A program made the position numbers and the translations under genes. Under the pieces are notes generated by a model, which was given only the letters and a program-made list of their open reading frames with translations, did not search any database and had not been told where the DNA came from. Positions 3,337 through 46,450 of a stretch of 64,000 nt of DNA are shown in pieces; the first letter of the stretch is position 1, and each line of letters begins with the position of its first letter. The stretch lies in the UHGV virus genome UHGV-0168042, one strand, 5' to 3'. This DNA is from a virus.

Positions 3337-4158
3337 TTAATAATGGTTAGCCATCCATTCAGATCTAATTGATGGGATAAACTCTCTATTGAGAAAGGGG
3401 ACGTACAGTGTGGTTGTCACATCTGCACCCTCCTTAGCGTTTTTGCAATGTTGCGGAGGCAGGATCAGTCGGCTTGTGCCTCTCTCAATAGACATTTTCA
3501 GGCCGTGGCGTAGGTCTTTTTGCATAAGCTGTATGCGAGCCACAAGCGGAGTAAATTCAGTTTCAAGCGCCATGCTTTCAATGATGTCAAAGCGTCGGTT
3601 AGCGGCCTGAGTGAAGTCCTCCGGATCGTCTTCAAGCGCCGTGCATAAAGCGAGTTCAGCAATTCGCATCCGTGCCACGCCAGCACTGTATTCGGGGCTT
3701 TTCATATCAGGAAGTGAAGCTCGCATTCGTTCAAGGAGTTCCGCGCCTTTCCCGGTTAATGGTTTAAGTATCCAGTCAGTTGGTACTCCATTTACTGGTA
3801 CGTTGGTTTTCACGTAAGGAGGTACAGTGAGTATTTCTACTGTTTGGGCCAGGTCGCTCAGGTTAATATCTGCATGATGCGTATTACCGCAGTGACTGCA
3901 CTCATAGGAGTAGGTCATTACTGCATCGGGGCGCGAATTAACAAATATCCACCAAAGAGCAGTTCTGCGATCCTGAACTGTCCAGTTAGCACTGTCGTTA
4001 ATTTCACCATCCTGCATAGAGTTAAGGTACTCTGTAGTAGTTGCCTCATCTTCTGCCGGGTTCAGGTCAGAATATTTCAGCGCATCCTTCACGGTAGGGG
4101 CGTGGAACTGAATTTCTGTCTCAGGACGGGAAGGCAATGGAAATTTTGGAATGTTCAA
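3337..4158 (-). CDS. Hypothetical phage virion/morphogenesis protein (273 aa)
   Basis: Complete ORF in track, co-oriented with and immediately upstream of the giant virion gene; no recognisable motif. Confidence 0.5.
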   Translation of the reverse strand: MNIPKFPLPSRPETEIQFHAPTVKDALKYSDLNPAEDEATTTEYLNSMQDGEINDSANWTVQDRRTALWWIFVNSRPDAVMTYSYECSHCGNTHHADINLSDLAQTVEILTVPPYVKTNVPVNGVPTDWILKPLTGKGAELLERMRASLPDMKSPEYSAGVARMRIAELALCTALEDDPEDFTQAANRRFDIIESMALETEFTPLVARIQLMQKDLRHGLKMSIERGTSRLILPPQHCKNAKEGADVTTTLYVPFLNREFIPSIRSEWMANHY

Positions 4159-6958: not shown

Positions 6959-7010
6959 CGTACCTACAACTCAAATACAAGGAATTCCCGCCACAAGGGC
7001 GGGAAAGAGA

Positions 7011-7502
7011 TCACTCTACCCAGTTGTAAACAATACGCAGGGAAGGCTTAACGACCGCTGTTACGTCTTCGGATGAGAAGTCCACGGCGTCGGAATACAC
7101 TTTGCAATGAGAATATGTGCGGATCAGACCTTTATGGTTACCGCTATTCGATTCAGCCGCCGCCTGTAAGGTAATTTCCAGATATTCTTTTCCGTATACC
7201 ATCTGTTTTACAGCGGCGAGAACTGCGCCTTCGATAGTTTCCGCGCATGTAACCTGAAATTCACCAGAGTTGCGTAATGGTCCGTGCTGGTTGAATTTCA
7301 TGCCACCAGGGGCGTAATCCTCCACATCTTCACGTGTCATTTCTGGTAACTGAGCTGTACGAACTAGTACAGACAGATGTTCGTAACCCTTAATGGTCAT
7401 CCAATATTCAGAACCAATAAGTTTTTCGCCTGCAGCCAGGTTTTTATTAAACCGGGATTTTAGAAAGGCCATATCGGCTTTTGTATTTGCAAAACCGGAC
7501 AT
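7011..7502 (-). CDS. Hypothetical virion protein (163 aa), size and position compatible with a tail tube protein
   Basis: Complete ORF; tube assignment is positional only (downstream of a 552-aa sheath-sized gene). Confidence 0.4.
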   Translation of the reverse strand: MSGFANTKADMAFLKSRFNKNLAAGEKLIGSEYWMTIKGYEHLSVLVRTAQLPEMTREDVEDYAPGGMKFNQHGPLRNSGEFQVTCAETIEGAVLAAVKQMVYGKEYLEITLQAAAESNSGNHKGLIRTYSHCKVYSDAVDFSSEDVTAVVKPSLRIVYNWVE

Positions 7503-7510
7503 AAATACTC

Positions 7511-8101
7511 CTACACAAAAACAGATGAGATATTGCTACGGTTGATCGATGTGTTACCGCTGCATTGCAGGGTTACCGTGTTATGAGTGAAATAGCCTTC
7601 CGGTGTGCGCGGGGCGTCCAGTTGGTAACTCACGCTTTTGATAACAACGTCGGTAAGGGCTATGTTCCTACCTATGTTTAACGTTACTGTCTCCGGGCGA
7701 CGACCGAATGGCGCTACATTGTTCAGTTCCGGCGATTCCATCTTCAGCAATGCTGTAATGGCTGCGTTCACTTCAAGTTGCGCGTTCGTTGTCGCCATGA
7801 AATCAATTACCAGATTAAATTCAGGCGGTTGCTGACCTTCCCAAACAAGCATTGAGTTGAAGAGGGTTTTTGTTGTTACGCCGGTTGCGGTCTGAAGCGT
7901 ATCTGCAAGAGAGCCAGCCGCAGCGCTAATACCGCCAAGCAAACCTCCTACTGACTGGTTTTCAAATGGTGATTGCCACATTGATGACAGTTCTGCGGTA
8001 GATCCTTCACCGATATAACCGACGACCATATCCTCTGAAGAGAGGATATAAACCTTCATTAACGGACTTATTCCGTCAGGCATTATCGCGCCGCAAATCA
8101 A
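7511..8101 (-). CDS. Hypothetical virion protein (196 aa)
   Basis: Complete ORF in structural run. Confidence 0.5.
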   Translation of the reverse strand: MICGAIMPDGISPLMKVYILSSEDMVVGYIGEGSTAELSSMWQSPFENQSVGGLLGGISAAAGSLADTLQTATGVTTKTLFNSMLVWEGQQPPEFNLVIDFMATTNAQLEVNAAITALLKMESPELNNVAPFGRRPETVTLNIGRNIALTDVVIKSVSYQLDAPRTPEGYFTHNTVTLQCSGNTSINRSNISSVFV

Positions 8102-8150
8102 ACGCTATTTCTCCCAGGTAGAGGCCACCTTTGCAGACGGCCTATGTCAC

Positions 8151-8891
8151 TTACAAACCGCGTTTTTTGCGAATGCGCATTGATTTTTTGCGGTTGATAT
8201 TCGCTACGGATGTATGTGCTTTGCGGCGTGCTTTTTTCAGCGCCTGTTTTTGCAATGACGTCATGCGGCGAGGACGCGGGCGTTTACGGATGATGGTAAC
8301 CTTGCCATCACGAACCACTTTTTTACGTACCGCTTCCAGCATTGCGCTATCACCACCAGCAACGGTGTAAATGGCAATAGCTGTTTCCATCATGTCGGTG
8401 TCGCTTTCGGAAAGAGCGTCATAAACACGTTCGGCAGCTGAGTCATCTTCATCGTCGATCATTTCGGTTACATCGTCCTGATCAGCGCCAAGCGCAACAG
8501 CTGCATCAGCAAGAGCTGCGAGAGCATCGTTATAAGCATCGATTTGCTCATCGGTGAAATCGGTGTCTTCATCGATATCAGCCAGGCCAGCCATAGTGAT
8601 TGCTAATGCATCAAATGAGTCAGCCTCCGGATCACCATCTTCAACCCAACCAGCAATCATGGAAGCTGCCAGGCTGCGCATATCACCTTGTGCACGGGAT
8701 TCAACCGCTTCCATCATCGCGGTTTCAATGTCGTCTTTGGGCTTTGGTTGAGTGTCCTTTCCTTTCTGTCCTGCGCTTTCCAGCATGGCGTTATCATTAT
8801 TGTCCTGAGTGGATTTATCACCGCTTTCAAAGCAGCCAGAACCGAAAATCGCACGCATAAACGGATCAGCAGTATAATTTTTCATATTCAA
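8151..8891 (-). CDS. Hypothetical protein (246 aa) with strongly acidic body and very basic C-terminal tail (RKRPRPRR...RKKRGL)
   Basis: Composition read from translation; could be scaffold-like or an internal DNA-binding protein. Confidence 0.45.
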   Translation of the reverse strand: MNMKNYTADPFMRAIFGSGCFESGDKSTQDNNDNAMLESAGQKGKDTQPKPKDDIETAMMEAVESRAQGDMRSLAASMIAGWVEDGDPEADSFDALAITMAGLADIDEDTDFTDEQIDAYNDALAALADAAVALGADQDDVTEMIDDEDDSAAERVYDALSESDTDMMETAIAIYTVAGGDSAMLEAVRKKVVRDGKVTIIRKRPRPRRMTSLQKQALKKARRKAHTSVANINRKKSMRIRKKRGL

Positions 8892-15815: not shown

Positions 15816-15841
15816 ATGTGTCTCAGAAGTGGAGCAAGAAG

Positions 15842-16798
15842 ATGCGCATTTTTATCGATGATGGTTCAACCAATATCAAAATGCTGTGGGAGCACGACGG
15901 GGAAACTCGCACTCACATCAGCCCTAACAGCTTTAAGCGCGGATGGTCAGCAACATTTGGTGCGGGCAAGCCGTTTAACTATGTCATTGACGACGAAAAG
16001 TATTCGTATGATTTGATCTCGCCAGATGTTCTGCCGACGAATAACGTGGAATGGCAATACAGCCCGCTTAACGTCCTGGCTGTTCACCATGCCCTGCTGA
16101 CAAGTGGCATTGAGCCGCAGGAAGTAGAAATTGTGGTCACGCTGCCTCTGGCGGAGTTTTACGACGACGACGCGCAATACAATCTCGATAACATCGAGCG
16201 CAAGAAAGCCAGTCTTATGCGCCCCGTCACGCTGAATAAAGGCAATGTGTTCACGATTAAGAAAGTTACGGTACGACCGGAGTCTATTCCGGCAGGAATT
16301 GGCCTGTGCGACAATCTGAACCCTGCCCATTCTGTTCTTATCGTCGATTTGGGTGGAACTACCCTTGATGTTTCAATGGTCGCCGGGCAAATGACGGCAG
16401 TTTCCCGTGTTTTTGGCGATTCGAATCTTGGTGTATCACTGGTCACCAGGGAAGTAAGGCAAGCACTTGCAAGGGCCAATACCGAAACGTCAAATTACAA
16501 TGTCGATCAGCTCATTATTAACCGCCACGATGAAGATTATCTGAACGACAATATCAATGACCCATCAGCGATTGGTGATGTGAAAAAGGCCATTGCCGCA
16601 AGCATTGACCGTCTGCGTACCCGCGTTCTTGATGTGATTGGCGACTTTAAAGGATATACGCATGTCATGGTGATCGGTGGTGGCGCACCGCTGGTGGCAG
16701 ATGCAATTCGCGAGCAAGTTAATATTCGTGATGACCGTTTCTTCGTGGCGGATGACCCGCAACTTGCTCTTGTTCATGGCCTGAAAGCAATCGGTTAA
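15842..16798 (+). CDS. parM: ParM/StbA actin-like partition ATPase (type II partition)
   Basis: MRIFIDDGSTNIKMLW... N-terminus and overall similarity to R1 ParM (family-level recall); track ORF begins at GTG 15818, ATG with GGAG RBS at 15842. Confidence 0.85.
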   Translation: MRIFIDDGSTNIKMLWEHDGETRTHISPNSFKRGWSATFGAGKPFNYVIDDEKYSYDLISPDVLPTNNVEWQYSPLNVLAVHHALLTSGIEPQEVEIVVTLPLAEFYDDDAQYNLDNIERKKASLMRPVTLNKGNVFTIKKVTVRPESIPAGIGLCDNLNPAHSVLIVDLGGTTLDVSMVAGQMTAVSRVFGDSNLGVSLVTREVRQALARANTETSNYNVDQLIINRHDEDYLNDNINDPSAIGDVKKAIAASIDRLRTRVLDVIGDFKGYTHVMVIGGGAPLVADAIREQVNIRDDRFFVADDPQLALVHGLKAIG

Positions 16799-16805
16799 CG
16801 AGGTA

Positions 16806-17150
16806 ATGTCCATGTCTCAGGAACGTAAGAAAGTGATGATTTATCTTCGCCCAGAGGCTTATGCCAATGAAAAGGCGGCGAGCGAGAAGATAAAAAAACA
16901 TAGCGATATGGCAAGAACCGCATTGTTGGCAGGGCTTGCGCTGGGAGAAGTCGATAGCAGGCTTCCAGGATTACTGGCTTCCCTGCTGACCGAAGATAAT
17001 AATCCGGAGCTGATCCGAAAAATGCTGGCATCCTTCCTGGAACTACCAGCTGCGGTTGAGGAGCGCCCTGCCTCCATTGAGCCAGTGAAGGAGCAAGTTG
17101 TTGCCAAAAGCGCGTCGGCGCGCAATCTGGCTGACTCTCTACCTGATTGA
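16806..17150 (+). CDS. parR: ParR/StbB-like partition adaptor
   Basis: Small protein directly downstream of parM with RHH-like N-terminus and ALLAGLALGE motif. Confidence 0.6.
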   Translation: MSMSQERKKVMIYLRPEAYANEKAASEKIKKHSDMARTALLAGLALGEVDSRLPGLLASLLTEDNNPELIRKMLASFLELPAAVEERPASIEPVKEQVVAKSASARNLADSLPD

Positions 17151-17168
17151 CAGAAGATGTGCTGGTTT

Positions 17169-17194
17169 AAGGCTGCAAATTGCAGCCTTTTTTA
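17169..17194 (+). terminator. Rho-independent terminator after parR
   Basis: aaggctgcaaattgcagcctt hairpin followed by a T run. Confidence 0.6.
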
Positions 17195-17437
17195 TGCCTT
17201 AATGGTGCCTAATTGGTGTTAATCTGGCACCGGTTAGGTGCTGTTATGGTGCAGTTTTGTATCTGGTTCCAATTTAGGGCTGATTTCGTGTTAAACAGGA
17301 TGCAACAGAGGGCAAATTTAGAATGATTAGTGTTATACTTTTGCAAAGCATAATGACTCCACTATAGAGCCAAAACCGCATCAATAAGACTTCTGTTTGG
17401 AGCCAGTTTGATACCAAAATAACACCGAGGAACGGAT

Positions 17438-18079
17438 ATGATTATATTGGTAGTCAGCCAAAAAGGTGGCTGTGGAAAATCAACCACAAGCGTAAACATC
17501 TGTGCGGAGCTTGCCCGCGCAAATAAGGATGTAGTGTTACTAGATGCAGACAAGCAAGGAACAGCTGCCCGCTGGGCAGCTGACCGTAACACGGCAGAGG
17601 TTTCTCCTGTAATTCATTGTGTCCAGAAGTTTGGTAATATTCGAGAAACACTTCTCGATCTGGATAAGCGTTATGAATTTGTAGTTGTTGATACAGCCGG
17701 GCGCGATAGCAAAGAGATGCGTACAGGCATAACCGCTGCAGATATTGTGTTGGTCCCATTCAGACCATCTCAACCAGATTTAGACACGCTGGCACACTTT
17801 GTTGAAGTGTTTGAAGAGGCTTTGGACCTGATGCCTAATCCTAGCATTAAGGCGTTCGCAGTCTTAACAATGGCCCCATCCAATCCGGTTGTGAATGAAA
17901 CCAATGAGGCCAAAGAGTACCTGGCTGAATATCCGCAACTGAAGTTGCTGAAAACCATCATTCGTGATCGTAAGGTTTACCGCGATTGCATGGCTGAAGG
18001 GAAGGGCGTTGTTGAGATGGACAACGGGAAAGCTAAAGGTGAAATCCAGATGTTGGTTAAGGAGTTATTAAGTGATTAA
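17438..18079 (+). CDS. Small ParA/ParF-family partition ATPase (type Ib)
   Basis: Deviant Walker A KGGCGKST, Walker B-like VVVDTAG; 213 aa lacking the N-terminal HTH of large ParA proteins. Confidence 0.8.
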   Translation: MIILVVSQKGGCGKSTTSVNICAELARANKDVVLLDADKQGTAARWAADRNTAEVSPVIHCVQKFGNIRETLLDLDKRYEFVVVDTAGRDSKEMRTGITAADIVLVPFRPSQPDLDTLAHFVEVFEEALDLMPNPSIKAFAVLTMAPSNPVVNETNEAKEYLAEYPQLKLLKTIIRDRKVYRDCMAEGKGVVEMDNGKAKGEIQMLVKELLSD

Positions 18080-18359
18080 ACCTCGTAAATCGGTAAAAGC
18101 CCCCGAAGTAAAAGACCCCGATCTTGAACGCCGAATTGAGGATTTTGCAAGTAAGGCTGATTTGGTGCCGGGTGAGCAACCAGAAGACAACAAAGTGCTC
18201 GATAAGGACGCCCCACGTGATTTTAAATCTATTCGTGTTGGTTTCAATGAATACGAGTACCAGGTACTTGATGCGTTAAGTAAAAAGCATAATCGCAGCA
18301 AATTGAATATGATCCGCCATGCTATCCTCATGTTAGCGGAGTCTGAGGAAGCAAAATAA
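18072..18359 (+). CDS. ParG-like small partition/DNA-binding partner
   Basis: 95-aa basic protein overlapping the ParA stop; RHH-like C-terminus (KLNMIRHAILMLAE); GGTGCA-containing inverted repeats flank the pair (17211-17250, 18406-18436). Confidence 0.5.
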   Translation: MIKPRKSVKAPEVKDPDLERRIEDFASKADLVPGEQPEDNKVLDKDAPRDFKSIRVGFNEYEYQVLDALSKKHNRSKLNMIRHAILMLAESEEAK

Positions 18360-18627
18360 AGTCTTTCAGGGTGGTTTTAGAACTTAAAAAATCTTGAACC
18401 AAAGATGCACCAATACACCACTAATTTGGTGCACCTTTACATCCTTTTTGGTCCCAATTGTGTACCATTTGTCATTAATTTACTTATGCGCAAAAGTGGG
18501 CTTCATGAAAAAGCTCATTATTGAAATAACGATAGAAAGCAATTTCTAATCAACTAGTGGTTGTCAGCCTATTCGGCTTATAAGATCATACGCTGTTATA
18601 CGTTTTTTACGCTTTGAGGAATCCACA

Positions 18628-20289
18628 ATGAGTGAGGCAGAAGCCCGCCCGACTAACTTTATTCGTCAGATCATCGATGAAGATCTGGCCAGTGGTAAGC
18701 ACACCACAGTACACACCCGTTTCCCGCCGGAGCCGAATGGCTATCTGCATATTGGTCATGCGAAATCTATCTGCCTGAACTTCGGGATCGCCCAGGACTA
18801 TAAAGGCCAGTGCAACCTGCGTTTCGACGACACTAACCCGGTAAAAGAAGATATCGAGTACGTCGAGTCGATTAAAAACGACGTTGAATGGTTAGGTTTT
18901 CACTGGTCTGGTAACGTCCGTTACTCCTCCGATTATTTTGATCAGCTCCACGCCTATGCTGTTGAACTGATCAACAAAGGCCTGGCGTATGTTGACGAAC
19001 TGACGCCGGAACAGATCCGCGAATACCGCGGCACCCTGACGCAGCCGGGTAAAAACAGCCCGTACCGCGATCGCAGCGTTGAAGAGAACCTGGCGCTGTT
19101 CGAAAAAATGCGTGCCGGTGGTTTTGAAGAAGGTAAAGCCTGCCTGCGTGCGAAAATCGACATGGCGTCGCCGTTTATCGTGATGCGCGATCCGGTGCTG
19201 TACCGCATTAAGTTTGCTGAACACCACCAGACTGGCAACAAGTGGTGCATCTACCCGATGTACGACTTCACCCACTGCATCAGCGATGCGCTGGAAGGTA
19301 TTACGCACTCTCTGTGTACGCTTGAGTTCCAGGACAACCGTCGCCTGTACGACTGGGTGCTGGACAACATCACCATTCCTGTTCACCCGCGCCAGTACGA
19401 ATTCTCGCGCCTGAATCTGGAATACACTGTGATGTCCAAGCGTAAGCTGAACCTGCTGGTGACCGACAAGCACGTTGAAGGCTGGGATGACCCGCGTATG
19501 CCGACCATTTCCGGTCTGCGTCGTCGTGGTTACACTGCGGCTTCTATTCGTGAGTTCTGCAAACGCATCGGCGTGACCAAGCAGGACAACACCATTGAAA
19601 TGGCGTCGCTGGAATCCTGCATCCGTGAAGATCTCAACGAAAACGCCCCGCGCGCAATGGCGGTTATCGATCCGGTGAAACTGGTCATCGAAAACTATCA
19701 GGGCGAAGGCGAAATGGTCACCATGCCGAACCATCCAAACAAACCGGAAATGGGTAGCCGTCAGGTGCCGTTTAGCGGTGAGATTTGGATCGACCGCGCC
19801 GATTTCCGAGAAGAAGCTAACAAGCAGTACAAACGTCTGGTGCTGGGTAAAGAAGTGCGTCTGCGTAATGCTTACGTCATTAAGGCTGAACGCGTGGAGA
19901 AAGATGCCGAAGGTAATATCACCACCATCTTCTGTACTTATGACGCCGACACCTTAAGCAAAGATCCGGCAGATGGTCGTAAAGTGAAAGGCGTTATTCA
20001 CTGGGTGAGCGCGGCACATGCGCTGCCGGTTGAAATCCGCCTGTACGATCGTCTGTTCAACGTGCCGAACCCAGGTGCTGCGGATGATTTCCTGTCGGTG
20101 ATTAACCCGGAATCGCTGGTGATCAAACAAGGCTTTGCTGAACCGTCGCTGAAAGAAGCGGTAGCGGGTAAAGCATTCCAGTTTGAGCGTGAAGGTTATT
20201 TCTGCCTCGACAGCCGCCATTCTACGGCGGAAAAACCGGTATTTAACCGCACCGTTGGACTGCGTGATACCTGGGCGAAGTTAGGTTAA
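18628..20289 (+). CDS. glnS: Glutaminyl-tRNA synthetase (class I, HIGH/KMSK)
   Basis: 553-aa translation matches E. coli GlnRS along its length from recall ([24 protein letters not shown]..., HIGH at [17 protein letters not shown] motif); only the last residues appear to differ. Confidence 0.95.
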
Positions 20290-20314
20290 TAGGTATTTCG
20301 CCACATGAAAAAGT

Positions 20315-20340
20315 AAACGCCGCTACTGCGGCGTTTTTTA
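20315..20340 (+). terminator. Rho-independent terminator after glnS
   Basis: aaacgccgctactgcggcgtttttt. Confidence 0.7.
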
Positions 20341-22632
20341 CTTCATTATTGCAATTATATCGTTAGCAACTACACGTGTTGACGCCTTGCAGGAAACCGA
20401 CCGTCTGGCTGCCATATGATGTACTTTAAACCCGTTTCCTTCATATAGTTCACGGATGTTTGGTGCACCACTATTTGTAATCACTACCTTAGCGCCGCGC
20501 TGGTGGGCTTCCACCAATAGAGATACCAGCCGTTTCTGTTCGTCGAAACGGAAGCTATTTCCTGAATAACTGGTAAACCCTTCTGTATCCGGCAGCGGTT
20601 CATACGGCGGATCGCAAAAAATCACATCTCCTTCACCAGCCGCCTCGATGACGCCAGCAAAGTCACCTGATACAAAGGACGTGTTTTTGAGTACGTCATC
20701 AGCCAAAAATGCCTCCATCTCTGCATGTGGGAAGTAGGGCGCTTTGTATTTGCCATACCCCACGTTGAACTCGCCATTTTGGTTGTACCGCGTTACGCCA
20801 TTAAAACAGTGCCGATTAAGGTACAAAAAGGCGGCAGCATGATGTAGCTGGTCATACTTTCCTCTGTTAAATGCCTCACGCACTTCGAGGTAAGCGTCAG
20901 CGTTGTTGTAATTTTGGAAAAAACTATATGACAGCGTGACGAGCGAATGTCCTTCTCGCTGCAATGTCTGATAGAAGTTAATCAGGTCACCGTTAATATC
21001 ATTAAGCAGGTTGTGGCGAAATCCTGCATTCGTAAATACAGAACCGCCACCAACGAACGGTTCTATTAACCGCTTGCCGTGTGGTAGATGCTCAAGCACT
21101 GTAGGCAACTCTGAGAATTTACCGCCTACCCATTTGAAGATCGGACGCTCATATTCATCCGGAGTCCGGAGTTTTCTTGTGTAGGTAATGGTATTTATTG
21201 TTTTTGGCTGTTTAGCTTCCACAGTCGCAAGAATGCGACACCCAATCCATTGCATAACAGGAACTGCCATGCTGTTGCCAATCGCTTTGTAACGCGGCCC
21301 GTCAGCAGCGAGCATCGCGGCCTCTTCTTCGCTTAAATCTGGATAGTGATTGCGAAGGTATGCCAGTTCATCTGAGGAAATTGTTTTACGCTTTTCCGTA
21401 GGGATCAACGTATGCCCATCAGGAAAACCTTGCAGCCTTTCACATTCGACAGGGGTAAGACGGCGGACAGCTACTTCTGCGTTTCTTACTTCATAGCAAA
21501 CGGCTGTTGGATTTTGAGCCATTAGAGATGGTGAAGTATTCTTAGTTGCAGCATGTTGTGTACCGCTCATACGCTCAGGAAAAGCTAATGTAACAAGATG
21601 CTCATGGCTTTCTTGCTCACGCGCCCGCAATGTACCATGCCCCTCTGACCAAAAACCTGCTCCTGTGCTGCTAAAAACGGCAAGGTCAGTGGCATCTTTA
21701 AAGTCTCTTGCCTTTACTGTCGATGCGGTTTCATCGTCAATATATTCCCCAAATGCCGCCATCCTGAAAGCGTTTACGGCTTTCGTCGATTTCATACCGG
21801 GGGGCATGTCAGCGTGTAGGCATGGATTTAGGCTTTCGCCACTGATTGCAGCGCCATTTGCAATAATGGCGGAAGCGATTTCCTTCTTTTTTCGGCTCGG
21901 CGCAATATTCCGGCGCACGCCTTCGAACTCAAAAAGTATCGTTGCGGGATCGAGGTCTGTTCGAGCACTTGCGACAACAAACACGCGTCGGCGTCGTTGC
22001 GCCACTCCGAAGTATTGGGCATCAAGGATTCTCCAGGCCACTTTTCGCTGCGGTCCATAAATACAACCACACTGCGGCCACTTTGGAGCATGGCAACTGG
22101 TTTTGACATCCCACCGCCAGAACGCGTTACTTTTTCGCGATTCAGGTCGAGCACCTGGTTCGAATGGCGCATCTTCTCCAGCCAATCCGGCAAGGAAACA
22201 TCCGAAGGCGTTATCTGCCGATGACAAGACTCCTGGGACATTTTCCCAGACGATAACGGCTGGTTTGAGAAATGACTCAGCCCGTTTGTCGTCAATTGCA
22301 TTTGCAAGCTCCACATACTTTAAAGTTAGCGCGCCACGCTCATCATCAAGCCCACCACGTAATCCAGCGATACTGAATGCCTGACAAGGTGTTCCCCCGA
22401 CGAGCACATCAGGGGATTCGATTTCCCCAGCCAGGACTTTTTTGGCAAGTTTTGTCATATCGCCAAGGTTGGCGACATGGGGCCAGCGGTGCGCAAGAAC
22501 GGCAGATGGAAAAGGCTCGATTTCAGCAAACCACGCCGGACGCATACCCAACGGTTCCCAGGCAATGCTCGCTGCTTCAATTCCACTGCAAACTGAACCA
22601 TATCTAAGGTTAACGTTCTGCTTCACCACCAA
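20338..22632 (-). CDS. dmt: Bifunctional DNA methyltransferase: N-terminal C5-cytosine MTase domain fused to C-terminal Dam-like N6-adenine MTase domain (P1 Dmt-like)
   Basis: C5-MTase motifs GSVCSGIE (I), [12 protein letters not shown] (IV), ENV (VI), QRRRRVFVV (VIII), GNSMAVPV (X); then Dam-type KWVGGK, NRHCFNG and CDPPYEP. Confidence 0.85.
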
Positions 22633-27673: not shown

Positions 27674-28054
27674 GTGGGCTTTCCTTTGGAATTAATGAAC
27701 ATTAAAACTATCCGTACAGAACAAGATTATGAGGCCGCACTGCGTGCGGTAGAACCGATGTTCGATAACGAACCGGAAACGAACACCCCGGAAGGTAATT
27801 TCTTGGAGGTTATGTGTCTTCTCATTGAGGAGTACGAGAAAAAACATTACCCAATTGAGCCGCCATCACCTATTGAAGCCATTAAATCCCGTATGGAATA
27901 GCAAGGGTTGACCGTGAAGGATCTGGAACCGGCGATTGGTAAGTCAAATCGTGTTTACGAAGTGCTAAATGGGACACGAAATTTAACGTTACCTATGATT
28001 CGTCGTTTACATTCCCAGTTTGGCATTCCTCTTGAAAGCCTAGTTGGTGTTTAA
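27674..28054 (+). pseudogene. Second HigA-like antitoxin gene interrupted by an in-frame TAG at 27899-27901
   Basis: N-terminal 75 aa (IRTEQDYEAALRAVEPMFD...) and, in the same frame after the amber codon, the HTH part (QGLTVKDLEPAIGKSNRVYEVLNGTRNLTLPMIRRLHSQFGIPLESLVGV); intact homologs carry a sense codon there. Confidence 0.5.
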
Positions 28055-28114
28055 GTTTGGCAGTCTGGAGGGCCGATTTTACATAAAATCAAGGTTTAAA
28101 TATTTGGTGATTAT

Positions 28115-28855
28115 ATGAGCACTGATTCATCAATAGAAAAGGAAAATGAAAAATCATCCGCCCAAAATCTGATAGAAGATGCTGTAAAAGATAAGTTGTT
28201 TAATAAGGTTTTTGCCTACATTTTTATTTCATTTTTAATTTCTAACTGGCGAGATATATTTATATTGTTGAAGTCAAAAGATGATGTTATGTATACATTA
28301 TCTATGGTGTTTGTTGGGGAAAAGATTCCATTATTTGGGAATGTTTTTGTACCCTCATTCGTAGCTCATTTTGTCTTGCCTTTTATTTATGGTGTTGTGG
28401 CTTCAATATTAGCCCCAATGTTAACTTTACTAATTTCTATGGTGACTGGCACAATATACGCTAAATTGAGAGAGATAGATAAAATTGAAGACAAAAAAGA
28501 ACAAGTAAGAAAAATTAACAGAGACATTAATGATCTTACTAAGAAACGGAAAGACGTTGAAGAGCGTCTTGAAAAAGAAAAAGAAGAACATGAATCATTA
28601 AAAAGAAAGGTAGAAGAAGTTAGGGAACAGATTGAATGTGTGGATAGCGATATCCGTCATGTTATTAAATTATATAGAGAGAAAGGTGAGAGCTTAAATT
28701 CGTTGGATGATTTTTATGAATTTTTTACTGCCGTGAAAAACTCATCTTTTCGTTCGGGTGATACAAATGACAGGGAGACACTTGAGGAGATTCTCTCAAA
28801 GCTTTCTGATTCACTTGAAAAAATTAAATGCGATGCTAATAAAAAGGTGGGATAA
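28115..28855 (+). CDS. AT-rich membrane protein with N-terminal TM helices and C-terminal K/E-rich coiled coil (candidate exclusion/abortive-infection-type protein)
   Basis: 246 aa; hydrophobic segments VFAYIFISFLISNW and FVLPFIYGVVASILAPMLTLLISMV, then a long charged coiled coil; markedly lower GC than neighbours; followed by a hairpin terminator. Confidence 0.55.
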   Translation: MSTDSSIEKENEKSSAQNLIEDAVKDKLFNKVFAYIFISFLISNWRDIFILLKSKDDVMYTLSMVFVGEKIPLFGNVFVPSFVAHFVLPFIYGVVASILAPMLTLLISMVTGTIYAKLREIDKIEDKKEQVRKINRDINDLTKKRKDVEERLEKEKEEHESLKRKVEEVREQIECVDSDIRHVIKLYREKGESLNSLDDFYEFFTAVKNSSFRSGDTNDRETLEEILSKLSDSLEKIKCDANKKVG

Positions 28856-28880
28856 ACCCACCTTTGTTAATTTTTTATGT
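28844..28880. terminator. Bidirectional hairpin terminator between convergent genes
   Basis: aaggtgggataaacccacctt followed by a T run. Confidence 0.5.
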
Positions 28881-30057
28881 ACTCCATGAACATTTTTTCA
28901 GCTTGTGCTGGTGGTGTTCCAGCCATGACAAGCGCATCAATGAACGCCTGCTTCTTCAGTGCGAACTGATCGGCAAGGCGTTGCTGAAGTTCCTTATTTT
29001 TCTGTTTCTCACGTTGCAAGGCCGCTTCTTTTGCAGCCGCCCGTTTTTTCTGTGCGTCTGACAACTTTCTGGCCCTGGTCAATTGGTCACGTAGCTTGTC
29101 GATATTGCCGTTGTCCTTTGCCAGTTTTGTACTTAAAGCTGCCTGGCGCTTCTGATAGAGCCTCCATTCGCGTTTGGCGGCTTCAACGTTTGTTTTACTG
29201 CTTCGATTGCGATTAAACTCCTTCTCGTCTTCTTTTGAGAAGTGTTTGGTTGTACGGCGGCGATCGTCACCAAATGCAATTTGCGTTGCAGCCTTTTGTA
29301 GCGCACGAGCAATACTCATTTGCCAACTGGCGGACTGTAACCGCGTCATTGAGTGGATCACGTGTTTACAGGCGACGCCTTGCAGCTTCGGGTTGCGAAC
29401 TTTTGGATAGGCGTATTCTTTTGGCGGGGCCAGGGCAAAGTTACCCGCAGTAGCGATGTAACGATACCAGTATTGATGACGACCACAGTCACAATCGAAA
29501 GACACTCGCCCGGCGCACAGTGATTTAGTGATTTTGAGAGCTGATTTATCGTCTTCTGCGATGTCATCGACCATCTGATCCCATTCTTCAAAGCGTATCC
29601 GGACGATATGGTGCTGGTGGACGGATATATCCGATGCTTCTACGCGGATATTAATCACGTTGTGGCGAAGAGATACGGGGGTAGCTCTTTTGATACCAGA
29701 TCCGTCATCCACGGCGTTATTTGCACGCTTAATATCGATTGCCTGGCTGGATGCCACCAGCTGGGCGTATGTGATGCCAGCCGTCTTGCTGTCATATTTT
29801 TCGCGTGTTTTACTCCGTAGCTTTTCGAAACCTTTCAGGTCGTCTCGCGTGAAGAACGTGCCGCCTTTTTTCTTCCCTAACTTGAGAATATCTTCGGCGG
29901 ATTTGTTCCTCAGTCCACCTGGCGTCAGCGTCCGGTGAGCTTGTCGGCGCTTACGGGTTTGTTCTTTCCTGATAATCTCGAATATACGCGTGAAGTCCTT
30001 AGAGGACAGACCGTCAGTGATATAGCGCCCGTCCTGGTTTTTCAGGAAATCAGGCAT
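28867..30057 (-). CDS. SWIM-type zinc-finger protein with long basic coiled-coil C-terminus (396 aa)
   Basis: CxC-Xn-CxH signature (FDCDCGRHQYWYRY...GVACKHVIH); C-terminal K/R/Q/E-rich helix. Confidence 0.5.
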   Translation of the reverse strand: MPDFLKNQDGRYITDGLSSKDFTRIFEIIRKEQTRKRRQAHRTLTPGGLRNKSAEDILKLGKKKGGTFFTRDDLKGFEKLRSKTREKYDSKTAGITYAQLVASSQAIDIKRANNAVDDGSGIKRATPVSLRHNVINIRVEASDISVHQHHIVRIRFEEWDQMVDDIAEDDKSALKITKSLCAGRVSFDCDCGRHQYWYRYIATAGNFALAPPKEYAYPKVRNPKLQGVACKHVIHSMTRLQSASWQMSIARALQKAATQIAFGDDRRRTTKHFSKEDEKEFNRNRSSKTNVEAAKREWRLYQKRQAALSTKLAKDNGNIDKLRDQLTRARKLSDAQKKRAAAKEAALQREKQKNKELQQRLADQFALKKQAFIDALVMAGTPPAQAEKMFMEYIKN

Positions 30058-41954: not shown

Positions 41955-42647
41955 GTGGATCAAAAAATGAAAGAACGCGGGATGATTTTTAACGATGAGA
42001 TGGTCAGGGCCATCCTCGAAGGAAGGAAGACGCAGACTCGCCGACCTGTAAAAAATGTCAGGGCCGATAACTGCCTAGTTATCCGTAAACCGACAAAGAA
42101 ACGCAATGGTGTCTATACCCACGTTATGGATGCACCTGAACATGGTTTATGCCCGTTCGGTAACGTTGGTGATCGCATATGGGTCCGTGAGGCGTGGGCG
42201 ATATTAGGCAATGAGGATGGTTGCAGTGTGGACTGGAACGACAACCTTTGTCGTGGCGATGAGAAGAACGCAGCAAGGATTTATCGGGCCAGTTGTGAGC
42301 AAAAGCCTGGTGATTACGGTTTGTGGTCGATACCCGATGATGCCGACTGGAAACCTCACACTGTGAATGAAAAGTTTGATGGCGGGTGGCGTCCATCAAT
42401 TCACATGCCGCGCTGGGCTTCGCGTATTTTGCTGGAAATTACCGACGTGCGTGTGGAACGGCTGCGTGATATGAGCGAGGCAGATGCTAAAGCAGAAGGC
42501 GCATCTCCGGCGATGTACAAAATTACGCCGCCGGAAGCTGTTTATCGCGTTGGTTTTGGTGACATCTGGCGCAGTATTTACGGGCAGGATAACTGGCTAT
42601 CTAACCCGTGGGTATGGGTAATCGAGTTTAAGCGCGTTCAGGAATAA
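41955..42647 (+). CDS. Hypothetical protein (230 aa), ASCH/PUA-like N-terminus possible
   Basis: MIFNDEMVRAILEGRKTQTRRP pattern common in prophage genes. Confidence 0.4.
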   Translation: MDQKMKERGMIFNDEMVRAILEGRKTQTRRPVKNVRADNCLVIRKPTKKRNGVYTHVMDAPEHGLCPFGNVGDRIWVREAWAILGNEDGCSVDWNDNLCRGDEKNAARIYRASCEQKPGDYGLWSIPDDADWKPHTVNEKFDGGWRPSIHMPRWASRILLEITDVRVERLRDMSEADAKAEGASPAMYKITPPEAVYRVGFGDIWRSIYGQDNWLSNPWVWVIEFKRVQE

Positions 42648-42650
42648 ACC

Positions 42651-43529
42651 GTGAGTATGCATCAAGTTGTCAGCTTTTCAGGTGGACGAACATCGGCTTA
42701 TCTCGTTCATCTGATGGAAGCACAGCGAAAAGCTGGCGCTAGCGTCCATTTCATTTTTATGGATACCGGCTGTGAACATCCTCTGACGTATCGCTTTATT
42801 CGTGAGGTTGTGAAGTTCTGGAATGTACCGCTAACGGTGTTGCAGGTCGATATAAATCCAGAACTTGGGCAGCCAAATGGTTATACGGAATGGGAACCAA
42901 AGGATATTCAGACGCGAATGCCGGTGCTTAAACCGTTTATGGACATGGTTAAAAAGTACGGTACGCCATACATCGGCGGCGCGTTCTGTACTGACAGGCT
43001 AAAACTAACCCCTTTCACGAAATATTGCGATGACCATTTTGGGCGAGGGAATTACATCACATGGCTGGGTATTCGTGCGGACGAACCCCGTAGGCTGAAA
43101 CCGAAACCGGGCGTCCGGTATCTTGCCGAGCTGTCAGATTTTGATAAGTCGGATGTTATCCGGTGGTGGCGAAAACAACCTTTTGATTTGCAAATCCCGG
43201 AGCACCTCGGGAACTGTGTTTTTTGCATCAAAAAGTCAACGCAAAAGCTGGGGCTTGCATGTAAAGACGAACCAGGTCTGATGCGGGTTTTTAATGAACT
43301 GGTTACAGGCAAACACGTCAGGGATGGTCATCGCAGAACAGATAAAGACGTTATGTACCGTGGTCACCTGACGCTTGACGGGATTGCCAGAATGTATGCC
43401 GACAGCGACTACAGAAATTTGTATCAGGCGATGGTGCAGGCCAAGCGGTTTGATACTGGTTCGTGTTCCGAATCATGTGAAATCTGGGGTGACCAATTGG
43501 AGTTGAAATTCGAAGAGGTAGTGGCATGA
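42651..43529 (+). CDS. PAPS reductase-family (PP-loop ATP pyrophosphatase) protein
   Basis: PP-loop SFSGGRTS near N-terminus, C-terminal Cys cluster. Confidence 0.7.
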   Translation: MSMHQVVSFSGGRTSAYLVHLMEAQRKAGASVHFIFMDTGCEHPLTYRFIREVVKFWNVPLTVLQVDINPELGQPNGYTEWEPKDIQTRMPVLKPFMDMVKKYGTPYIGGAFCTDRLKLTPFTKYCDDHFGRGNYITWLGIRADEPRRLKPKPGVRYLAELSDFDKSDVIRWWRKQPFDLQIPEHLGNCVFCIKKSTQKLGLACKDEPGLMRVFNELVTGKHVRDGHRRTDKDVMYRGHLTLDGIARMYADSDYRNLYQAMVQAKRFDTGSCSESCEIWGDQLELKFEEVVA

Positions 43530-44035
43530 CAAACAAAATTGACTATCAAAAGCTTCGTGAAATTGCTGAAAAAACAAAAATTGCTGGTGAAGCGCCTGTA
43601 ATGCCTTTCGATCAGCGAATTAATGCGCTTAACGATTTTATGAAGCACTTTTCGCCAGATATCGCGTTGGCATTATTGGATGAAGTTAAACGCCTGGAGG
43701 ACACAAATATTGATGCTATGTGTCGAATTGCAGAGCTTGAGACTAATCTCGCGGCGCTGGCAGCGGAGAATGAGCTGGCTCGTAAGGCAGTTCAGGCATT
43801 CTGCGATGTTGTTGGCGACAACACCGAGGTTATCGCTGAGGTGGTTGGGCGAGATGGCGTTCTGGTTATTTTGGAGGCCATGAAGGCAACAGGAAATATG
43901 CCAGCCACCGATGCTTTCCTGGCTGAAGTACGGGCGCAGGGCGTGGAGATGTTTGCGGAGTGTGCATACACGCTTGAACATCATGATCACGCAGTAGCCT
44001 TCGCCGCTGAGCTTCGCAAAGGAGGCAACCAGTGA
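43526..44035 (+). CDS. Ea22-like family protein, paralog D
   Basis: IDYQKLREIAEK N-terminus, RIAELETNLAALAAENELARK, PATDAFLAEVRAQGV...AAELRKGGNQ. Confidence 0.55.
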   Translation: MTNKIDYQKLREIAEKTKIAGEAPVMPFDQRINALNDFMKHFSPDIALALLDEVKRLEDTNIDAMCRIAELETNLAALAAENELARKAVQAFCDVVGDNTEVIAEVVGRDGVLVILEAMKATGNMPATDAFLAEVRAQGVEMFAECAYTLEHHDHAVAFAAELRKGGNQ

Positions 44036-44727
44036 GCAAGATTGACTATCAAGAACTGCGCGAGGCGGCGGAGAAGGCTACGAAAGGTAAGTGGGCTGTT
44101 GAATTCGACGATGAGATTTACTCCACTGACGGCATAAACCATGAGCAAATAGCTATGGTGTTCAGTGAAAACGAATCTCGTGATGCTGAATTCATCGCCG
44201 CAGCCAATCCGGCTACCGTCTTGGCGCTGCTGGATGAACGGGAAAGAAACCAGCAATACATCAAACGCCGCGACCAGGAGAACGAGGATATTGCGCTAAC
44301 GGTAGGGAAACTGCGTGTTGAGCTGGAAGGCAAAGACAGCAAAATAGCCAATCTTACCGCCGAACGCGATGCTCTTCGTGAAGGTGAGATGGGCGACGCT
44401 AGGCATAGCAACACACGGGCCGCAGCTGATATCTACTTCCAACTGGTCGAGGAGTGCGAAATTCCTGCTGGCGGATCTCTGGTCGAGTACGTTGACGATA
44501 TGCGCGAGAAGCTGGAAGCCGCAGAGAAGCGCATTGCAGAGTTAGAAAGTGGTTCTCAGGCACAAAAGTTAGTTGAAGCAATCATTGTTGCGATAGAAAA
44601 CGAACAGGAAAGGCTTTTTGATGAAGATTACCTAATGGATTCGAAAGAATGCATTGACGTAATTCGTGAAGAAGTAAAGCGATGGAATGATTCCCGCGCC
44701 GCTGGCATTCGCATCAAAGGAGAGTGA
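44032..44727 (+). CDS. Ea22-like family protein, paralog E (divergent C-terminus)
   Basis: IDYQELREAAEKATKGKW N-terminus, coiled coil RIAELES. Confidence 0.5.
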   Translation: MSKIDYQELREAAEKATKGKWAVEFDDEIYSTDGINHEQIAMVFSENESRDAEFIAAANPATVLALLDERERNQQYIKRRDQENEDIALTVGKLRVELEGKDSKIANLTAERDALREGEMGDARHSNTRAAADIYFQLVEECEIPAGGSLVEYVDDMREKLEAAEKRIAELESGSQAQKLVEAIIVAIENEQERLFDEDYLMDSKECIDVIREEVKRWNDSRAAGIRIKGE

Positions 44728-44728
44728 T

Positions 44729-44992
44729 ATGGCAACTTTGACAAAAAAAGAACAAGCATGGTTGAGCGAATTACAGGACGTTCTTGATCGCTGCCCATCA
44801 CCGAAAAAAATTGGTTTTTACACCATTGGCGATAAAAGCATTTACCTGTATGACCTGCGCCGCATGGATGAAATCATGGAGGCTCTTGATAATCGTTCGT
44901 CAATGGATTGGTGTGTTGCTGTTCATGATATGAATGCCGGATTTGATGAAAAGATTTTATTCCCCTCATCAGTTGAAAGCACTGCGGGTTAA
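44729..44992 (+). CDS. Hypothetical protein (about 87 aa from ATG 44729)
   Basis: Track ORF 44687-44992; internal start MATLTKKEQ follows preceding stop. Confidence 0.4.
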   Translation: MATLTKKEQAWLSELQDVLDRCPSPKKIGFYTIGDKSIYLYDLRRMDEIMEALDNRSSMDWCVAVHDMNAGFDEKILFPSSVESTAG

Positions 44993-45002
44993 GGAGTAAC
45001 AC

Positions 45003-46193: not shown

Positions 46194-46450
46194 TGGATGT
46201 AAAAGAGAAGGTTTTGCAGGTGATGCGTTCCCGTGCTGCCCTACAAGAGAAAGCTCTCGGCGGTGAATATCCATTCACGATAGCAACCTGGAATCTGCGG
46301 TTGGCAATGGAGAAGGAATTTCCTGATGAAGAATGGCGTTCGGCAGATTTGCGCAAAATTCTTATGGAGCTGGCTAAAGACGGAACAGTATCCAAAGATA
46401 CCCATGCCAGCCGGATTGGTCAGGCGGTATGGAGACTGGAGGTGAGGTAA
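46190..46450 (+). CDS. Hypothetical protein (about 86 aa)
   Basis: Track ORF 46118-46450; start refined to MMDVKEK overlapping preceding stop. Confidence 0.4.
   Translation: MMDVKEKVLQVMRSRAALQEKALGGEYPFTIATWNLRLAMEKEFPDEEWRSADLRKILMELAKDGTVSKDTHASRIGQAVWRLEVR

Follow-up and report, generated by a model that had tools for sequence, protein, structure and literature searches.

A promoter-to-terminator glnS cassette in a phage D6-type plasmid prophage

In this study, a glutaminyl-tRNA synthetase (GlnRS) gene, glnS, was investigated within a 64,000-nt stretch of viral DNA (UHGV virus genome UHGV-0168042, hereafter the window). The coding sequence occupies positions 18628..20289 of the plus strand, as identified by open reading frame (ORF), profile search, BLASTP and structure match, and encodes 553 aa, uninterrupted by any frameshift or internal stop codon, so that the initial annotation was right to call the gene full-length and the missed frameshift it had allowed for does not exist. 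The product scored 1067.1 bits with the NCBIfam equivalog TIGR00440 (glnS; cut-off 425.8) across the whole model (positions 1-524 of 524), and harbors the three Pfam GlnRS/GluRS domains PF00749 (28-337), PF03950 (340-439) and PF20974 (456-528), which are the catalytic domain and the two beta-barrel anticodon-binding domains expected of a GlnRS. BLASTP against the K-12 enzyme returned 549 of 553 identical residues without gaps (99.3%), in line with the near-identity to E. coli GlnRS given in the initial annotation, and a near-identical full-length match was obtained to the solved E. coli chains 1o0b and 1gtr. The differences from K-12 are I112V, S478N, D510E and V552L together with the absence of the terminal residue E554; residue 510 is naturally variable and V112 is seen in Citrobacter. 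Both class I signatures are present as in K-12 GlnRS: the HIGH motif was as annotated (residues 41-44, nt 18748-18759), and the second motif, the KMSKS-type loop annotated as KMSK, literally reads VMSK (residues 268-271, nt 19429-19440), an exact match to E. coli GlnRS. The product is a class Ib synthetase and, because of the 99.3% identity to a characterized enzyme, should be equivalent in function to the host GlnRS and glutaminylate tRNA-Gln. Identity between the gene and chromosomal glnS is 96-98%, and the plasmid copies are marked by fixed differences at CDS nt 129, 246, 334, 336, 348, 363 and 1653 and by the distinct C-terminus.

The gene is accompanied by its own expression signals. Homology to chromosomal glnS upstream DNA begins at position 18534, where the block common to all glnS-positive plasmids also begins, and the captured 5' region therefore spans 18534..18627 of the plus strand. 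A promoter scan placed a -35 box (TTGTCA, 18561-18566) and a -10 box (GATCAT, 18584-18589) 17 nt apart in this region; the match to consensus (9/12) is by itself no better than expected from shuffled sequence, and what supports the promoter call is its homology to the chromosomal one. A Shine-Dalgarno sequence (GAGGAA) follows at 18616-18621. The -10 box contains a Dam site (GATC at 18584) that is invariant in 19 of 19 aligned sequences, and dam mutants show derepression of the chromosomal gene (Plumbridge & Soll 1987, as cited in PMC12369378); a Dam-sensitive glnS promoter is kept on an element with its own Dam nearby. As for the upstream leader that the initial annotation assigned to the gene, only about 95 nt (~18534-18627) derive from glnS, and 18360-18533 is element DNA. 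The rho-independent terminator, by comparison, proved to be of native glnS type. It was located at 20315..20340, with no single strand assigned, by a terminator scan on both strands and by alignment, and consists of a GC-rich 9-bp hairpin at 20315-20336 (AAACGCCGC-TACT-GCGGCGTTT) followed by a T-run, with A/T runs flanking the hairpin on both sides. Its homologues lie 3' of chromosomal glnS in Salmonella and Citrobacter, and in E. coli past REP elements. An alternative placement, in which the terminator was phage DNA and the 3' junction fell inside the last codons, was rejected, since the wider alignment identified the native glnS hairpin with the REP elements intervening in E. coli. The terminator abuts the stop codon of the convergent methyltransferase gene dmt and, given this adjoining stop codon and the A/T runs on both sides, the hairpin at 20315-20340 probably ends dmt transcription as well. 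The cassette is therefore a promoter-to-terminator capture of about 1.8 kb (~18534-20340), and both of its junctions are common to diverged lineages.

Upstream of the cassette lies a short ParA-type partition ATPase gene (17438..18079, plus strand, 213 aa), the equivalent of D6 orf60 by profile search, Pfam and D6 annotation; its match to NF041546 ParA_partition (E=8.5e-48, 162.6 bits) is under that model's 180-bit cut-off, and its Pfam matches are CbiA, AAA_31 and MipZ. A 95-aa ORF corresponding to D6 orf61 (18072..18359, plus strand) overlaps the parA stop codon, is kept beside parA in all relatives and is presumed from position and size to be the centromere-binding partner. It gave no family match in NCBIfam and Pfam profile searches, so that of the "ParA/ParG-like pair" described earlier the ParA half was retained and the ParG-like identity of orf61 was dropped. 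Outside glnS, an inverted repeat at 18401..18438 (AAAGATGCACCAA-N12-TTGGTGCACCTTT, unstranded) may serve ParA/orf61 as a partition site or operator; an E. fergusonii plasmid displays the same architecture with a different arm sequence, and glnS-less relatives carry 11-bp-phased repeats in its place. A 51-aa ORF in the leader (18394-18549) had no NCBIfam or Pfam match, and its region is not kept in the E. fergusonii plasmid. Downstream, the P1 Dmt-like methyltransferase was recovered as annotated: a 764-aa Dcm+Dam fusion on the minus strand (20338..22632), convergent with glnS, with Pfam domains PF02086 and PF00145, a Dam part scoring 245.9 bits with TIGR00571 dam (residues 496-761) and a Dcm part scoring 120.2 bits with TIGR00675 dcm, divided into two stretches of which residues 13-138 match best.

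With reference to phage D6, the window was found to be collinear over 13 blocks of 87-98% identity, with one additional 74% paralogous match; the run proceeds from D6 position 41579 through the rox site and 91159/1 to 9784, mostly at 92-98% identity, and the D6-annotated content of these blocks includes repA, cre/rox, phd-doc, C1, pacAB and the tail and head virion genes. Phage-plasmid genes flank glnS on both sides over more than 18 kb. A D6-type parA flank was detected on 101 plasmids and on none of the chromosomes of 5426 complete E. coli genomes, which means that no integrated D6-like copy was found in them, and the nagE-glnS-chiP context of the chromosomal gene was sought around the window glnS and was absent. 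Given this collinearity, the window is part of an extrachromosomal plasmid prophage of the phage D6 type (P1 family), neither chromosome nor chimera, and the annotation of glnS as cargo on a P1-like phage-plasmid is upheld. Maintenance as a plasmid is judged here from relatives, which in PLSDB are circular, non-mobilizable, 78-97 kb in size and assigned to rep_cluster_1704.

The 1981-bp block at 18360-20340 is 97.5% identical in D6 and at least 95% identical in 104 closed plasmid records, and 100 records carry the GlnRS protein at 99% amino-acid identity or more. Given this recurrence, a chance occurrence is excluded. Closed plasmids with the glnS junctions come from E. coli, Salmonella and Shigella, with Salmonella cassettes in PLSDB up to 99.2% identical to the window, and the D6-type lineage reaches about 2% of the complete E. 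coli genomes. In the comparison with P1, P7, SJ46 and RCS47, the dmt part alone matched and glnS gave no match; among these P1-family elements, glnS is therefore specific to the D6 lineage. That D6-like elements carry glnS is already described, in GenBank annotations and in two papers. The D6 genome (MF356679 / NC_050154; Gilcrease & Casjens 2018, as given in the GenBank record and in PMC6799933) annotates orf62 as "glutaminyl-tRNA synthetase, similar to E. coli GlnS", and Silva et al. (2019, PMC6799933) regarded glnS as a moron of D6-like plasmids that might contribute to fitness or maintenance; our literature search found no follow-up work on it beyond the 2019 paper. The claim of that paper that all D6-like genomes have glnS is contradicted by three empty-site relatives (CP026816, CP028585 and AP027414, the first two in rep_cluster_1704), where parA-orf61 is followed by a spacer of 135-156 bp and then by dam, without glnS. 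The segment missing from these sister plasmids (window 18358-20348) nearly coincides with the block first noted, and the existence of such relatives indicates that the cassette is dispensable.

Concerning its origin, the E. fergusonii plasmid, with flanks only ~84-87% identical, holds glnS in an identical position and shares both its 5' and its 3' junction, which indicates that an ancestor of the D6 lineage took up glnS in one capture from a chromosome of Escherichia type. In the scan of genome contigs for the donor, E. ruysiae was the sole entry of the genus Escherichia among the matches listed, a comparison that did not extend to the E. albertii, E. fergusonii and E. marmotae alleles. Salmonella chromosomal glnS is about 85% identical to the cassette at the nucleotide level. 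Chromosomes gave 5428 glnS matches for the 5426 genomes, a genome-level count in which the carriers' own chromosomal glnS is not separated out; nearly every E. coli keeps its own copy, and the plasmid gene is for this reason redundant on paper.

The plasmid glnS is under strong purifying selection. Among nine aligned plasmid copies, 129 polymorphic codons were synonymous-only and 11 were amino-acid-changing, with pairwise dS of up to 0.31, and pN/pS was about 0.03 overall (0.044 over nt 1-549, 0.020 over nt 550-1653), near the values of the chromosomal copies. A pseudogene or decaying copy was rejected, as the ORF is unbroken in 9 of 9 aligned copies and in about 100 records at 99% amino-acid identity or more. 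We also observed that the D6 and ptetA copies are mosaic: they diverge from K-12 by 4.4% and 4.2% over the first ~820-835 nt, respectively, and by 1.0% and 0.4% over the remainder (max-chi2 permutation p<=0.002 for the breakpoint), and their 3' halves carry E. coli chromosomal alleles in conversion tracts of at least 800 nt. The plasmid glnS thus evidently exchanges sequence with the host chromosomal gene by homologous recombination. The 5' 550 nt, on the other hand, form a plasmid-specific haplotype that none of the sampled E. coli alleles has overwritten, and in the copies on pTB423 and on the E. fergusonii plasmid the last 275 nt are 7.6% off the E. coli alleles, while over the 551 codons compared these copies depart from K-12 at no more than 7 and 3 amino acids, respectively. 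Since recurrent conversion by the chromosome could preserve the ORF under little selection on the plasmid copy, the low pN/pS does not count as wholly independent support for a benefit.

We consider it quite probable (roughly 85%) that the D6-lineage glnS cassette was captured once, is self-expressed, and is kept by selection, with a role as a moron that would supply extra charging capacity as the most economical account of its putative benefit. In a lysogen, glnS would be transcribed from its own sigma-70 promoter, with the Dam-sensitive GATC kept in the -10 box, and the product, equal in function to the host enzyme, would charge host tRNA-Gln. The carrier cell would in this way gain a second, plasmid-linked source of GlnRS, and lytic replication, by raising the copy number, would raise the GlnRS dosage. 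Such extra or back-up Gln-tRNA charging may benefit host or phage, and would incidentally tie a housekeeping function to the plasmid. The translation-related cargo set proposed for the element was weakened on inspection: tRNA genes for Met, Thr and Arg are indeed present, but they lie about 40 kb from glnS and tRNA-Gln is absent from the element, which also removes an element-borne tRNA-Gln partner for the enzyme. A Gln-rich phage proteome as the need for GlnRS was likewise rejected, as Gln makes up 3.5% of residues over 69 ORFs, and the extra GlnRS therefore meets no obvious demand from element proteins.

Among the other explanations, host dependence, in which the chromosomal glnS is down-regulated or damaged, the plasmid GlnRS is relied on and plasmid-free cells are penalized, is unlikely. 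Silva et al. (PMC6799933) put it forward for the glnS of D6-like plasmids after the example of pBT1 cysS, an expressed and essential plasmid copy (PMC6785131, PMC6333337). The glnS cassette directly adjoins two partition modules, and the phd-doc carried on the element indicates heavy investment in maintenance. However, the chromosomal glnS count given above means that loss is rare at most, the enzyme is 99.3% identical to host GlnRS and is not a divergent paralogue like CysRS-pBT1, and relatives persist without any plasmid glnS. A neutral hitchhiker, conferring no benefit but small, cheap and repeatedly repaired by chromosomal gene conversion, is a more doubtful proposal still. It agrees with the long conversion tracts of the mosaic copies, with close relatives in which the cassette was lost or was never present, and with the fact that the mechanism of benefit is not evident; it fits poorly with the unoverwritten plasmid-specific 5' 550 nt, where pN/pS is nevertheless 0.044, and with the few amino-acid changes in the diverged pTB423 and E. 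fergusonii plasmid copies. Besides, the ~100 intact records include those from Salmonella hosts, where conversion by an 85%-identical chromosomal gene is unlikely.

Protection by a second GlnRS, whether against a GlnRS inhibitor or toxin or as a buffer of attacks on tRNA-Gln, is highly improbable. A second synthetase on a plasmid is a known resistance route, as with mupirocin-resistant IleRS and the self-immunity LeuRS of agrocin 84, and D6 itself bears a tRNA-Asn gene. Resistance copies, however, diverge at the drug site, whereas the GlnRS here shows three conservative changes and an altered C-terminal tail; with an enzyme 99.3% identical to that of the host, the tolerance through an altered target suggested in the initial annotation is unlikely, and only a dosage effect is conceivable. 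The window contains no tRNA-Asn, a literature search found no GlnRS-directed natural toxin, no such natural inhibitor is linked to D6-type glnS, and extra charging would be no help against CdiA-CT EC869, which cuts tRNA-Gln equally whether it is charged or not. GlnRS binds tRNA-Gln at its U1-A72 end, which it opens. A related and very speculative idea is that the cassette acts as a counter-measure against acceptor-stem tRNases, shielding or replenishing targets of the tRNA-Gln type. In this reading, the GlnRS supply would be amplifiable by copy number, derepressible through Dam and joined by the D6-type tRNA genes, and it would operate in inter-bacterial attack or abortive-infection defence, so that the lysogen or the lytic cycle stays translating.

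There is also little to suggest that the 1.7 kb of near-identity serves as a homology patch for RecA-dependent integration, cointegration or marker exchange at glnS, and we regard this as very improbable. Exchange with chromosomal alleles is seen in the mosaic D6 and ptetA 3' halves, and a complete-gene cassette would spare glnS on integration. Yet the D6-type flank is confined to plasmids in the genomes surveyed, by which integration through glnS homology was rejected; an intact ORF is not needed for such a role, although amino-acid changes are strongly avoided; and ~85% identity in Salmonella hosts is poor for homologous recombination. The observed allele exchange is better read as a by-product. 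Finally, a chimeric assembly or a chromosomal window, a formal possibility raised by the 96-98% identity of the gene to its chromosomal counterpart, found no support and has a negligible chance of being correct, as both junctions (18360 and 20340), at which a mis-join had been considered, recur in the D6 record as well as in over 100 plasmids closed independently, amid the long collinear phage-plasmid flanks, and the glnS copy has plasmid-specific fixed differences and a distinct C-terminus.

Complete housekeeping aminoacyl-tRNA synthetase (aaRS) genes are rare on plasmids and temperate phages, as the initial annotation held; 30 complete coding sequences were counted among 13,661 plasmids (PMC6785131). 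In a widespread phage-plasmid lineage of E. coli and Salmonella, glnS is a stable hallmark, and the purifying selection on it implies that it pays its way. Flagging the gene is in itself no new biology; what this study adds are the exact cassette boundaries, the empty-site relatives, evidence for ongoing exchange with host alleles and a Dam-sensitive promoter retained close to the Dam of the element, which amount to a cleaner experimental starting point and not to a discovery.

Among the closest known systems, D6 orf62 shares the locus and the neighbours (StbA/StbB, ParA and orf61 on one side of glnS, dmt and rdgC on the other), as well as the 553-aa GlnRS with its AKLG C-terminus. It differs from the window at 44 CDS nt (39 synonymous and 5 non-synonymous), its 3' half is K-12-like and that of the window is not, and the methylase beside glnS, a single P1-like Dcm+Dam fusion in the window, is split and different in D6. 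In the Salmonella plasmids pYU39_89 and p75 (PMC6799933), glnS is likewise a moron of D6-like plasmid prophages. The CysRS of pBT1 from Salmonella Typhimurium D23580 (Canals et al. 2019) is also a complete plasmid aaRS alongside a chromosomal copy. It is, however, divergent, less active and the essential expressed copy, whereas the D6-type GlnRS closely resembles the host enzyme. The mupirocin-resistance enzyme mupA/ileS2 and the agrocin 84 immunity LeuRS AgnB2 are plasmid-borne, inhibitor-resistant aaRS. Like glnS, they represent a second aaRS on a mobile element, but they are strongly diverged at the inhibitor site and glnS is not; the four substitutions and the loss of E554 relative to K-12 are its only changes. 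Translation genes are also carried as cargo by other viruses, such as the tRNA genes of P1 and D6 and the aaRS genes of jumbo phages and giant viruses. The glnS cassette resembles these as a virus-carried translation gene with tRNAs on the same element, and differs from the aaRS of viral lineages in being a recent, near-identical copy of a host gene with host expression signals.

The block at 18360-20340 of the window harbors an uninterrupted glnS open reading frame of 553 aa on the plus strand (18628-20289, ORF scan), whose product scored 1067 bits against the NCBIfam glutamine--tRNA ligase equivalog (cut-off 426) with the whole model covered, confirming the intact, full-length gene reported in the initial annotation. 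In the domain search, the protein showed the catalytic and the two anticodon-binding domains of a glutaminyl-tRNA synthetase (GlnRS); solved E. coli GlnRS structures match it from end to end, and 549 of the 553 positions are identical to the E. coli K-12 enzyme in a gapless alignment, bearing out the near-identity first noted. The changes are I112V, S478N and D510E, together with a tail of ...AKLG* in place of ...AKVGE*. Both class-I motifs are unchanged relative to K-12, HIGH at residues 41-44 as described, and the second at residues 268-271, which is intact but reads VMSK, the GlnRS form, rather than KMSK. The observation of a host-type glnS carried as cargo is thus confirmed, and its core interpretation is supported.

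With reference to the cassette boundaries, the alignment showed that homology to chromosomal glnS loci starts about 95 nt before the ATG, near 18534, which is also the start of the sequence common to all glnS-bearing plasmids, the diverged E. fergusonii plasmid among them. The leader ascribed to the gene is therefore glnS-derived only from about 18534, as 18360-18533 is not glnS DNA. This captured 5' region contains a predicted -35 element (TTGTCA, 18561-18566) and a predicted -10 element (GATCAT, 18584-18589) at 17-nt spacing in the promoter scan, as well as a Shine-Dalgarno sequence (GAGGAA, 18616-18621). At the other end, the hairpin at 20315-20336 (GCCGC-TACT-GCGGC, then a T-run) is the native glnS terminator, as had been claimed; the same terminator follows glnS directly in Salmonella and Citrobacter, and is separated from the stop codon by REP elements in E. 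coli. A chromosomal homology ending within the last glnS codons was ruled out by wider alignment, which took in this terminator. The 5' homology and the native terminator together make the cassette a neat unit of about 1.8 kb that runs from promoter to terminator (~18534-20340). Since the terminator abuts the stop codon of dmt, the convergent Dcm+Dam methyltransferase gene, and has A/T runs on both sides, it probably serves glnS and dmt alike.

All 19 aligned sequences keep the GATC at 18584, inside the -10 region, unchanged. Chromosomal glnS is derepressed without Dam methylation (Plumbridge & Soll 1987, per PMC12369378), with a log2FC of +1.08 in RNA-seq of a dam deletion (PMC12369378). The captured promoter retains this repressing Dam site, and the cassette adjoins the element's own Dam methylase gene (20338-22632), an arrangement that might couple GlnRS expression to the replication or methylation state. 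Just downstream of parA-orf61, we also observed an inverted repeat at 18401-18438, with 13-bp arms AAAGATGCACCAA...TTGGTGCACCTTT and a 12-bp spacer. In the E. fergusonii plasmid, a repeat of the same geometry and different arm sequence lies at 4087-4124 of locus L086, and glnS-less relatives display 11-bp-phased GGTACCGAATTGG-type repeats in its place. It looks like a candidate partition site or operator that co-evolves with its uncharacterised neighbor orf61.

Profile searches identified a short ParA ATPase (17438-18079) upstream of glnS, a 95-aa partner ORF (orf61, 18072-18359) and the 764-aa Dcm+Dam methyltransferase (20338-22632, minus strand); of the neighbors originally named, the ParA and the Dmt-like methyltransferase stood, and the ParA partner gave no family match. 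ParA and orf61 form the second of two partition or stability modules in tandem (15818-18359), the first consisting of ParM/StbA (15818-16798) and StbB (16806-17150). The window is collinear with the P1-family phage-plasmid Escherichia phage D6 (MF356679), running from D6 41579 through rox, the lox-like site at the origin of the D6 record, to 9784 at 92-98% identity, except for a few replaced blocks. The matching blocks carry the D6-annotated plasmid replication gene, cre/rox, phd-doc, C1 repressor, pacAB, tRNAs and virion genes (tail, baseplate, sheath, capsid), so the context of iteron replicon, Cre/lox, phd-doc and virion genes was read rightly in substance. By this collinearity, the element is assigned to the P1 phage-plasmid family as a D6-like member. 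The native chromosomal context, with nagE upstream and chiZ/chiP downstream of glnS, was looked for and is absent from the window.

Some blocks depart from D6. Homology is broken over 21168-22610 within the methyltransferase gene, this part being about 96% identical to P1-like plasmids, and D6 annotates two separate methylase genes where the window has a single fusion, which suggests a D6/P1 recombinant; of the 622 PLSDB records that match, just 17 cover at least 80% of 16800-22632. The block at 41955-47880 has no D6 counterpart and encodes lambdoid-type accessory proteins, including a PAPS-reductase-like protein, two Ead/Ea22-like proteins, one DUF551 protein and several ORFs without a family hit. 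A short gap in D6 homology (28407-28871) lies inside the lowest-GC kilobase of the window (28001-29000, 0.345), where a 246-aa ORF (28115-28855, plus strand) gave sub-threshold coiled-coil-type Pfam hits only.

Three relatives lack glnS, namely Shigella dysenteriae CP026816 and E. coli CP028585, both of rep_cluster_1704 like the glnS-bearing plasmids, and E. coli pEC361_3 (AP027414). All display parA-orf61, then a 135-156 bp spacer of short phased repeats with its own GC hairpin, and then dam; 18358-20348 of the window has no counterpart in CP026816 and CP028585. The published statement that glnS is present in all D6-like genomes (PMC6799933) thus does not hold strictly. In the E. fergusonii plasmid the flanks share only about 84-87% identity with the window, but glnS is at the same place with the same junctions, which indicates a single old capture followed by patchy loss or module exchange.

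To follow the gene after capture, nine plasmid copies were aligned with seven E. coli chromosomal alleles, E. ruysiae, Salmonella and Citrobacter. Between plasmid copies, up to 6% of nucleotides and very few residues differ, with 129 synonymous-only polymorphic codons versus 11 amino-acid-changing ones; I112V is present in 9/9, and Citrobacter also has valine at 112. pN/pS was 0.044 (nt 1-549) and 0.020 (nt 550-1653) in the plasmid copies, and 0.051 and 0.005, respectively, in the chromosomal alleles. Conservation under purifying selection is thus apparent in these alignments, with conversion obscuring what share of the low pN/pS arose on the plasmid itself. The first ~550 nt form a distinct haplotype common to all plasmid copies, which diverges by 2-7% from the closest of the seven E. 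coli alleles and carries fixed differences at CDS nt 129, 246, 334, 336, 348 and 363. Mid-gene, the typical D6 clade is within ~1% of E. coli alleles, and the 3' half of D6 and ptetA is almost identical to the K-12 allele: divergence from K-12 falls from 4.4% over the first ~820 nt to 1.0% over the remainder in D6, and from 4.2% over the first ~835 nt to 0.4% in ptetA (breakpoints at max-chi-square permutation p <=0.002). The copies of pTB423 and the E. fergusonii plasmid are still 4-8% diverged towards the 3' end and probably represent the less-overwritten original allele. Plasmid glnS is 95-98% identical to E. coli and E. ruysiae versus 85-87% to Salmonella and Citrobacter. The most economical explanation is that the donor lay outside the sampled E. 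coli (seven chromosomal alleles) and within Escherichia-level divergence, and that repeated homologous exchange with host chromosomal glnS followed the capture. On the chromosomal side, the intergenic region upstream of the E. coli glnS promoter is of at least three types among strains, and an ST131 chromosome has a DeoR/GlpR regulator upstream of glnS, not nagE.

The sequence data show an intact, extrachromosomal glnS with host-type expression signals that recombines with the host allele, and we rank first a functional second GlnRS, a moron with an as yet undefined benefit. Such a gene would be expressed in lysogens, its enzyme functionally equivalent to host GlnRS, and glnS dosage would double at a plasmid copy number of ~1, rising further on lytic replication and when the promoter GATC is un- or hemi-methylated. 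By analogy with cysS on the Salmonella D23580 plasmid pBT1 (PMC6785131), host dependence or plasmid maintenance is the best specific rival; by count, chromosomal glnS is present essentially everywhere. The null is a neutral hitchhiker kept up by conversion. The proposed translation-related cargo set is weak: the element bears tRNA genes, Met(cat) at 59999-60074, Thr(tgt) at 61912-61987 and Arg(tct) at 61990-62066, all on the minus strand; these lie ~40 kb away, and the window has no dedicated tRNA partner for GlnRS. As D6 is annotated with Ser?/Thr/Asn tRNAs, this cargo varies within the lineage. The phage proteome is not Gln-rich (3.5% Gln). Inhibitor or toxin tolerance through an altered target, as earlier envisaged, is unlikely for an enzyme 99.3% identical to the host's. 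Since tRNA-Gln-cleaving CDI toxins do not distinguish charged from uncharged tRNA (PMC9071432), tRNA-Gln would not be saved by more charging, leaving its shielding by GlnRS as the only conceivable option. As to integration through glnS homology, 5426 complete E. coli genomes yielded no integrated element. Why D6-like plasmids carry glnS is a fair question for experiment, and the cassette boundaries, empty-site relatives and mosaic alleles described here should help in designing work on its benefit.

The gene is an already described and annotated hallmark of D6-like phage-plasmids. The 1981 bp of 18360-20340 match D6 over their full length at 97.5% identity, and the D6 record labels the gene 'orf62; glutaminyl-tRNA synthetase, similar to E. 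coli GlnS'. Crediting the first description to Gilcrease & Casjens 2018, Silva et al. 2019 (PMC6799933) explicitly discussed glnS as a moron of D6-like plasmid prophages and, from the parallel with plasmid-borne cysS in D23580, suggested a role in fitness or maintenance; our literature searches returned no later experimental work on D6-like glnS. In PLSDB, 119 records match, 104 of them at >=95% identity, mostly non-mobilizable plasmids of 78-97 kb from E. coli, Salmonella and Shigella annotated 'glnS: glutamine--tRNA ligase', and tblastn found a protein >=99% identical encoded in 100 plasmid records. Among the 5426 genomes, the D6-type par flank occurs in 101, always on plasmids, with 75 of these matches extending through the glnS-linked leader, and plasmid-borne glnS matches number 81. 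A few other records labeled as phage (MT836034.1, MT838755.1, MT835705.1 and Acinetobacter phage MD-2021a) contain glnS-like sequence at 63-72% nt identity, which may represent host DNA flanking predicted prophages or additional viral aaRS cargo. An unrelated 133-kb Enterobacter ludwigii plasmid (NZ_CP116349.1) carries a full-length glnS (7001-8668, ~93% aa identity) with dinQ and two site-specific integrases next to it; there, the same housekeeping gene was captured independently. Together with the general survey of plasmid aaRS genes (PMC6785131), this indicates that such cargo is not unique as a phenomenon. In P1, P7, SJ46 and RCS47, the match to this region of the window is confined to the methylase side, so that glnS marks the D6 branch.
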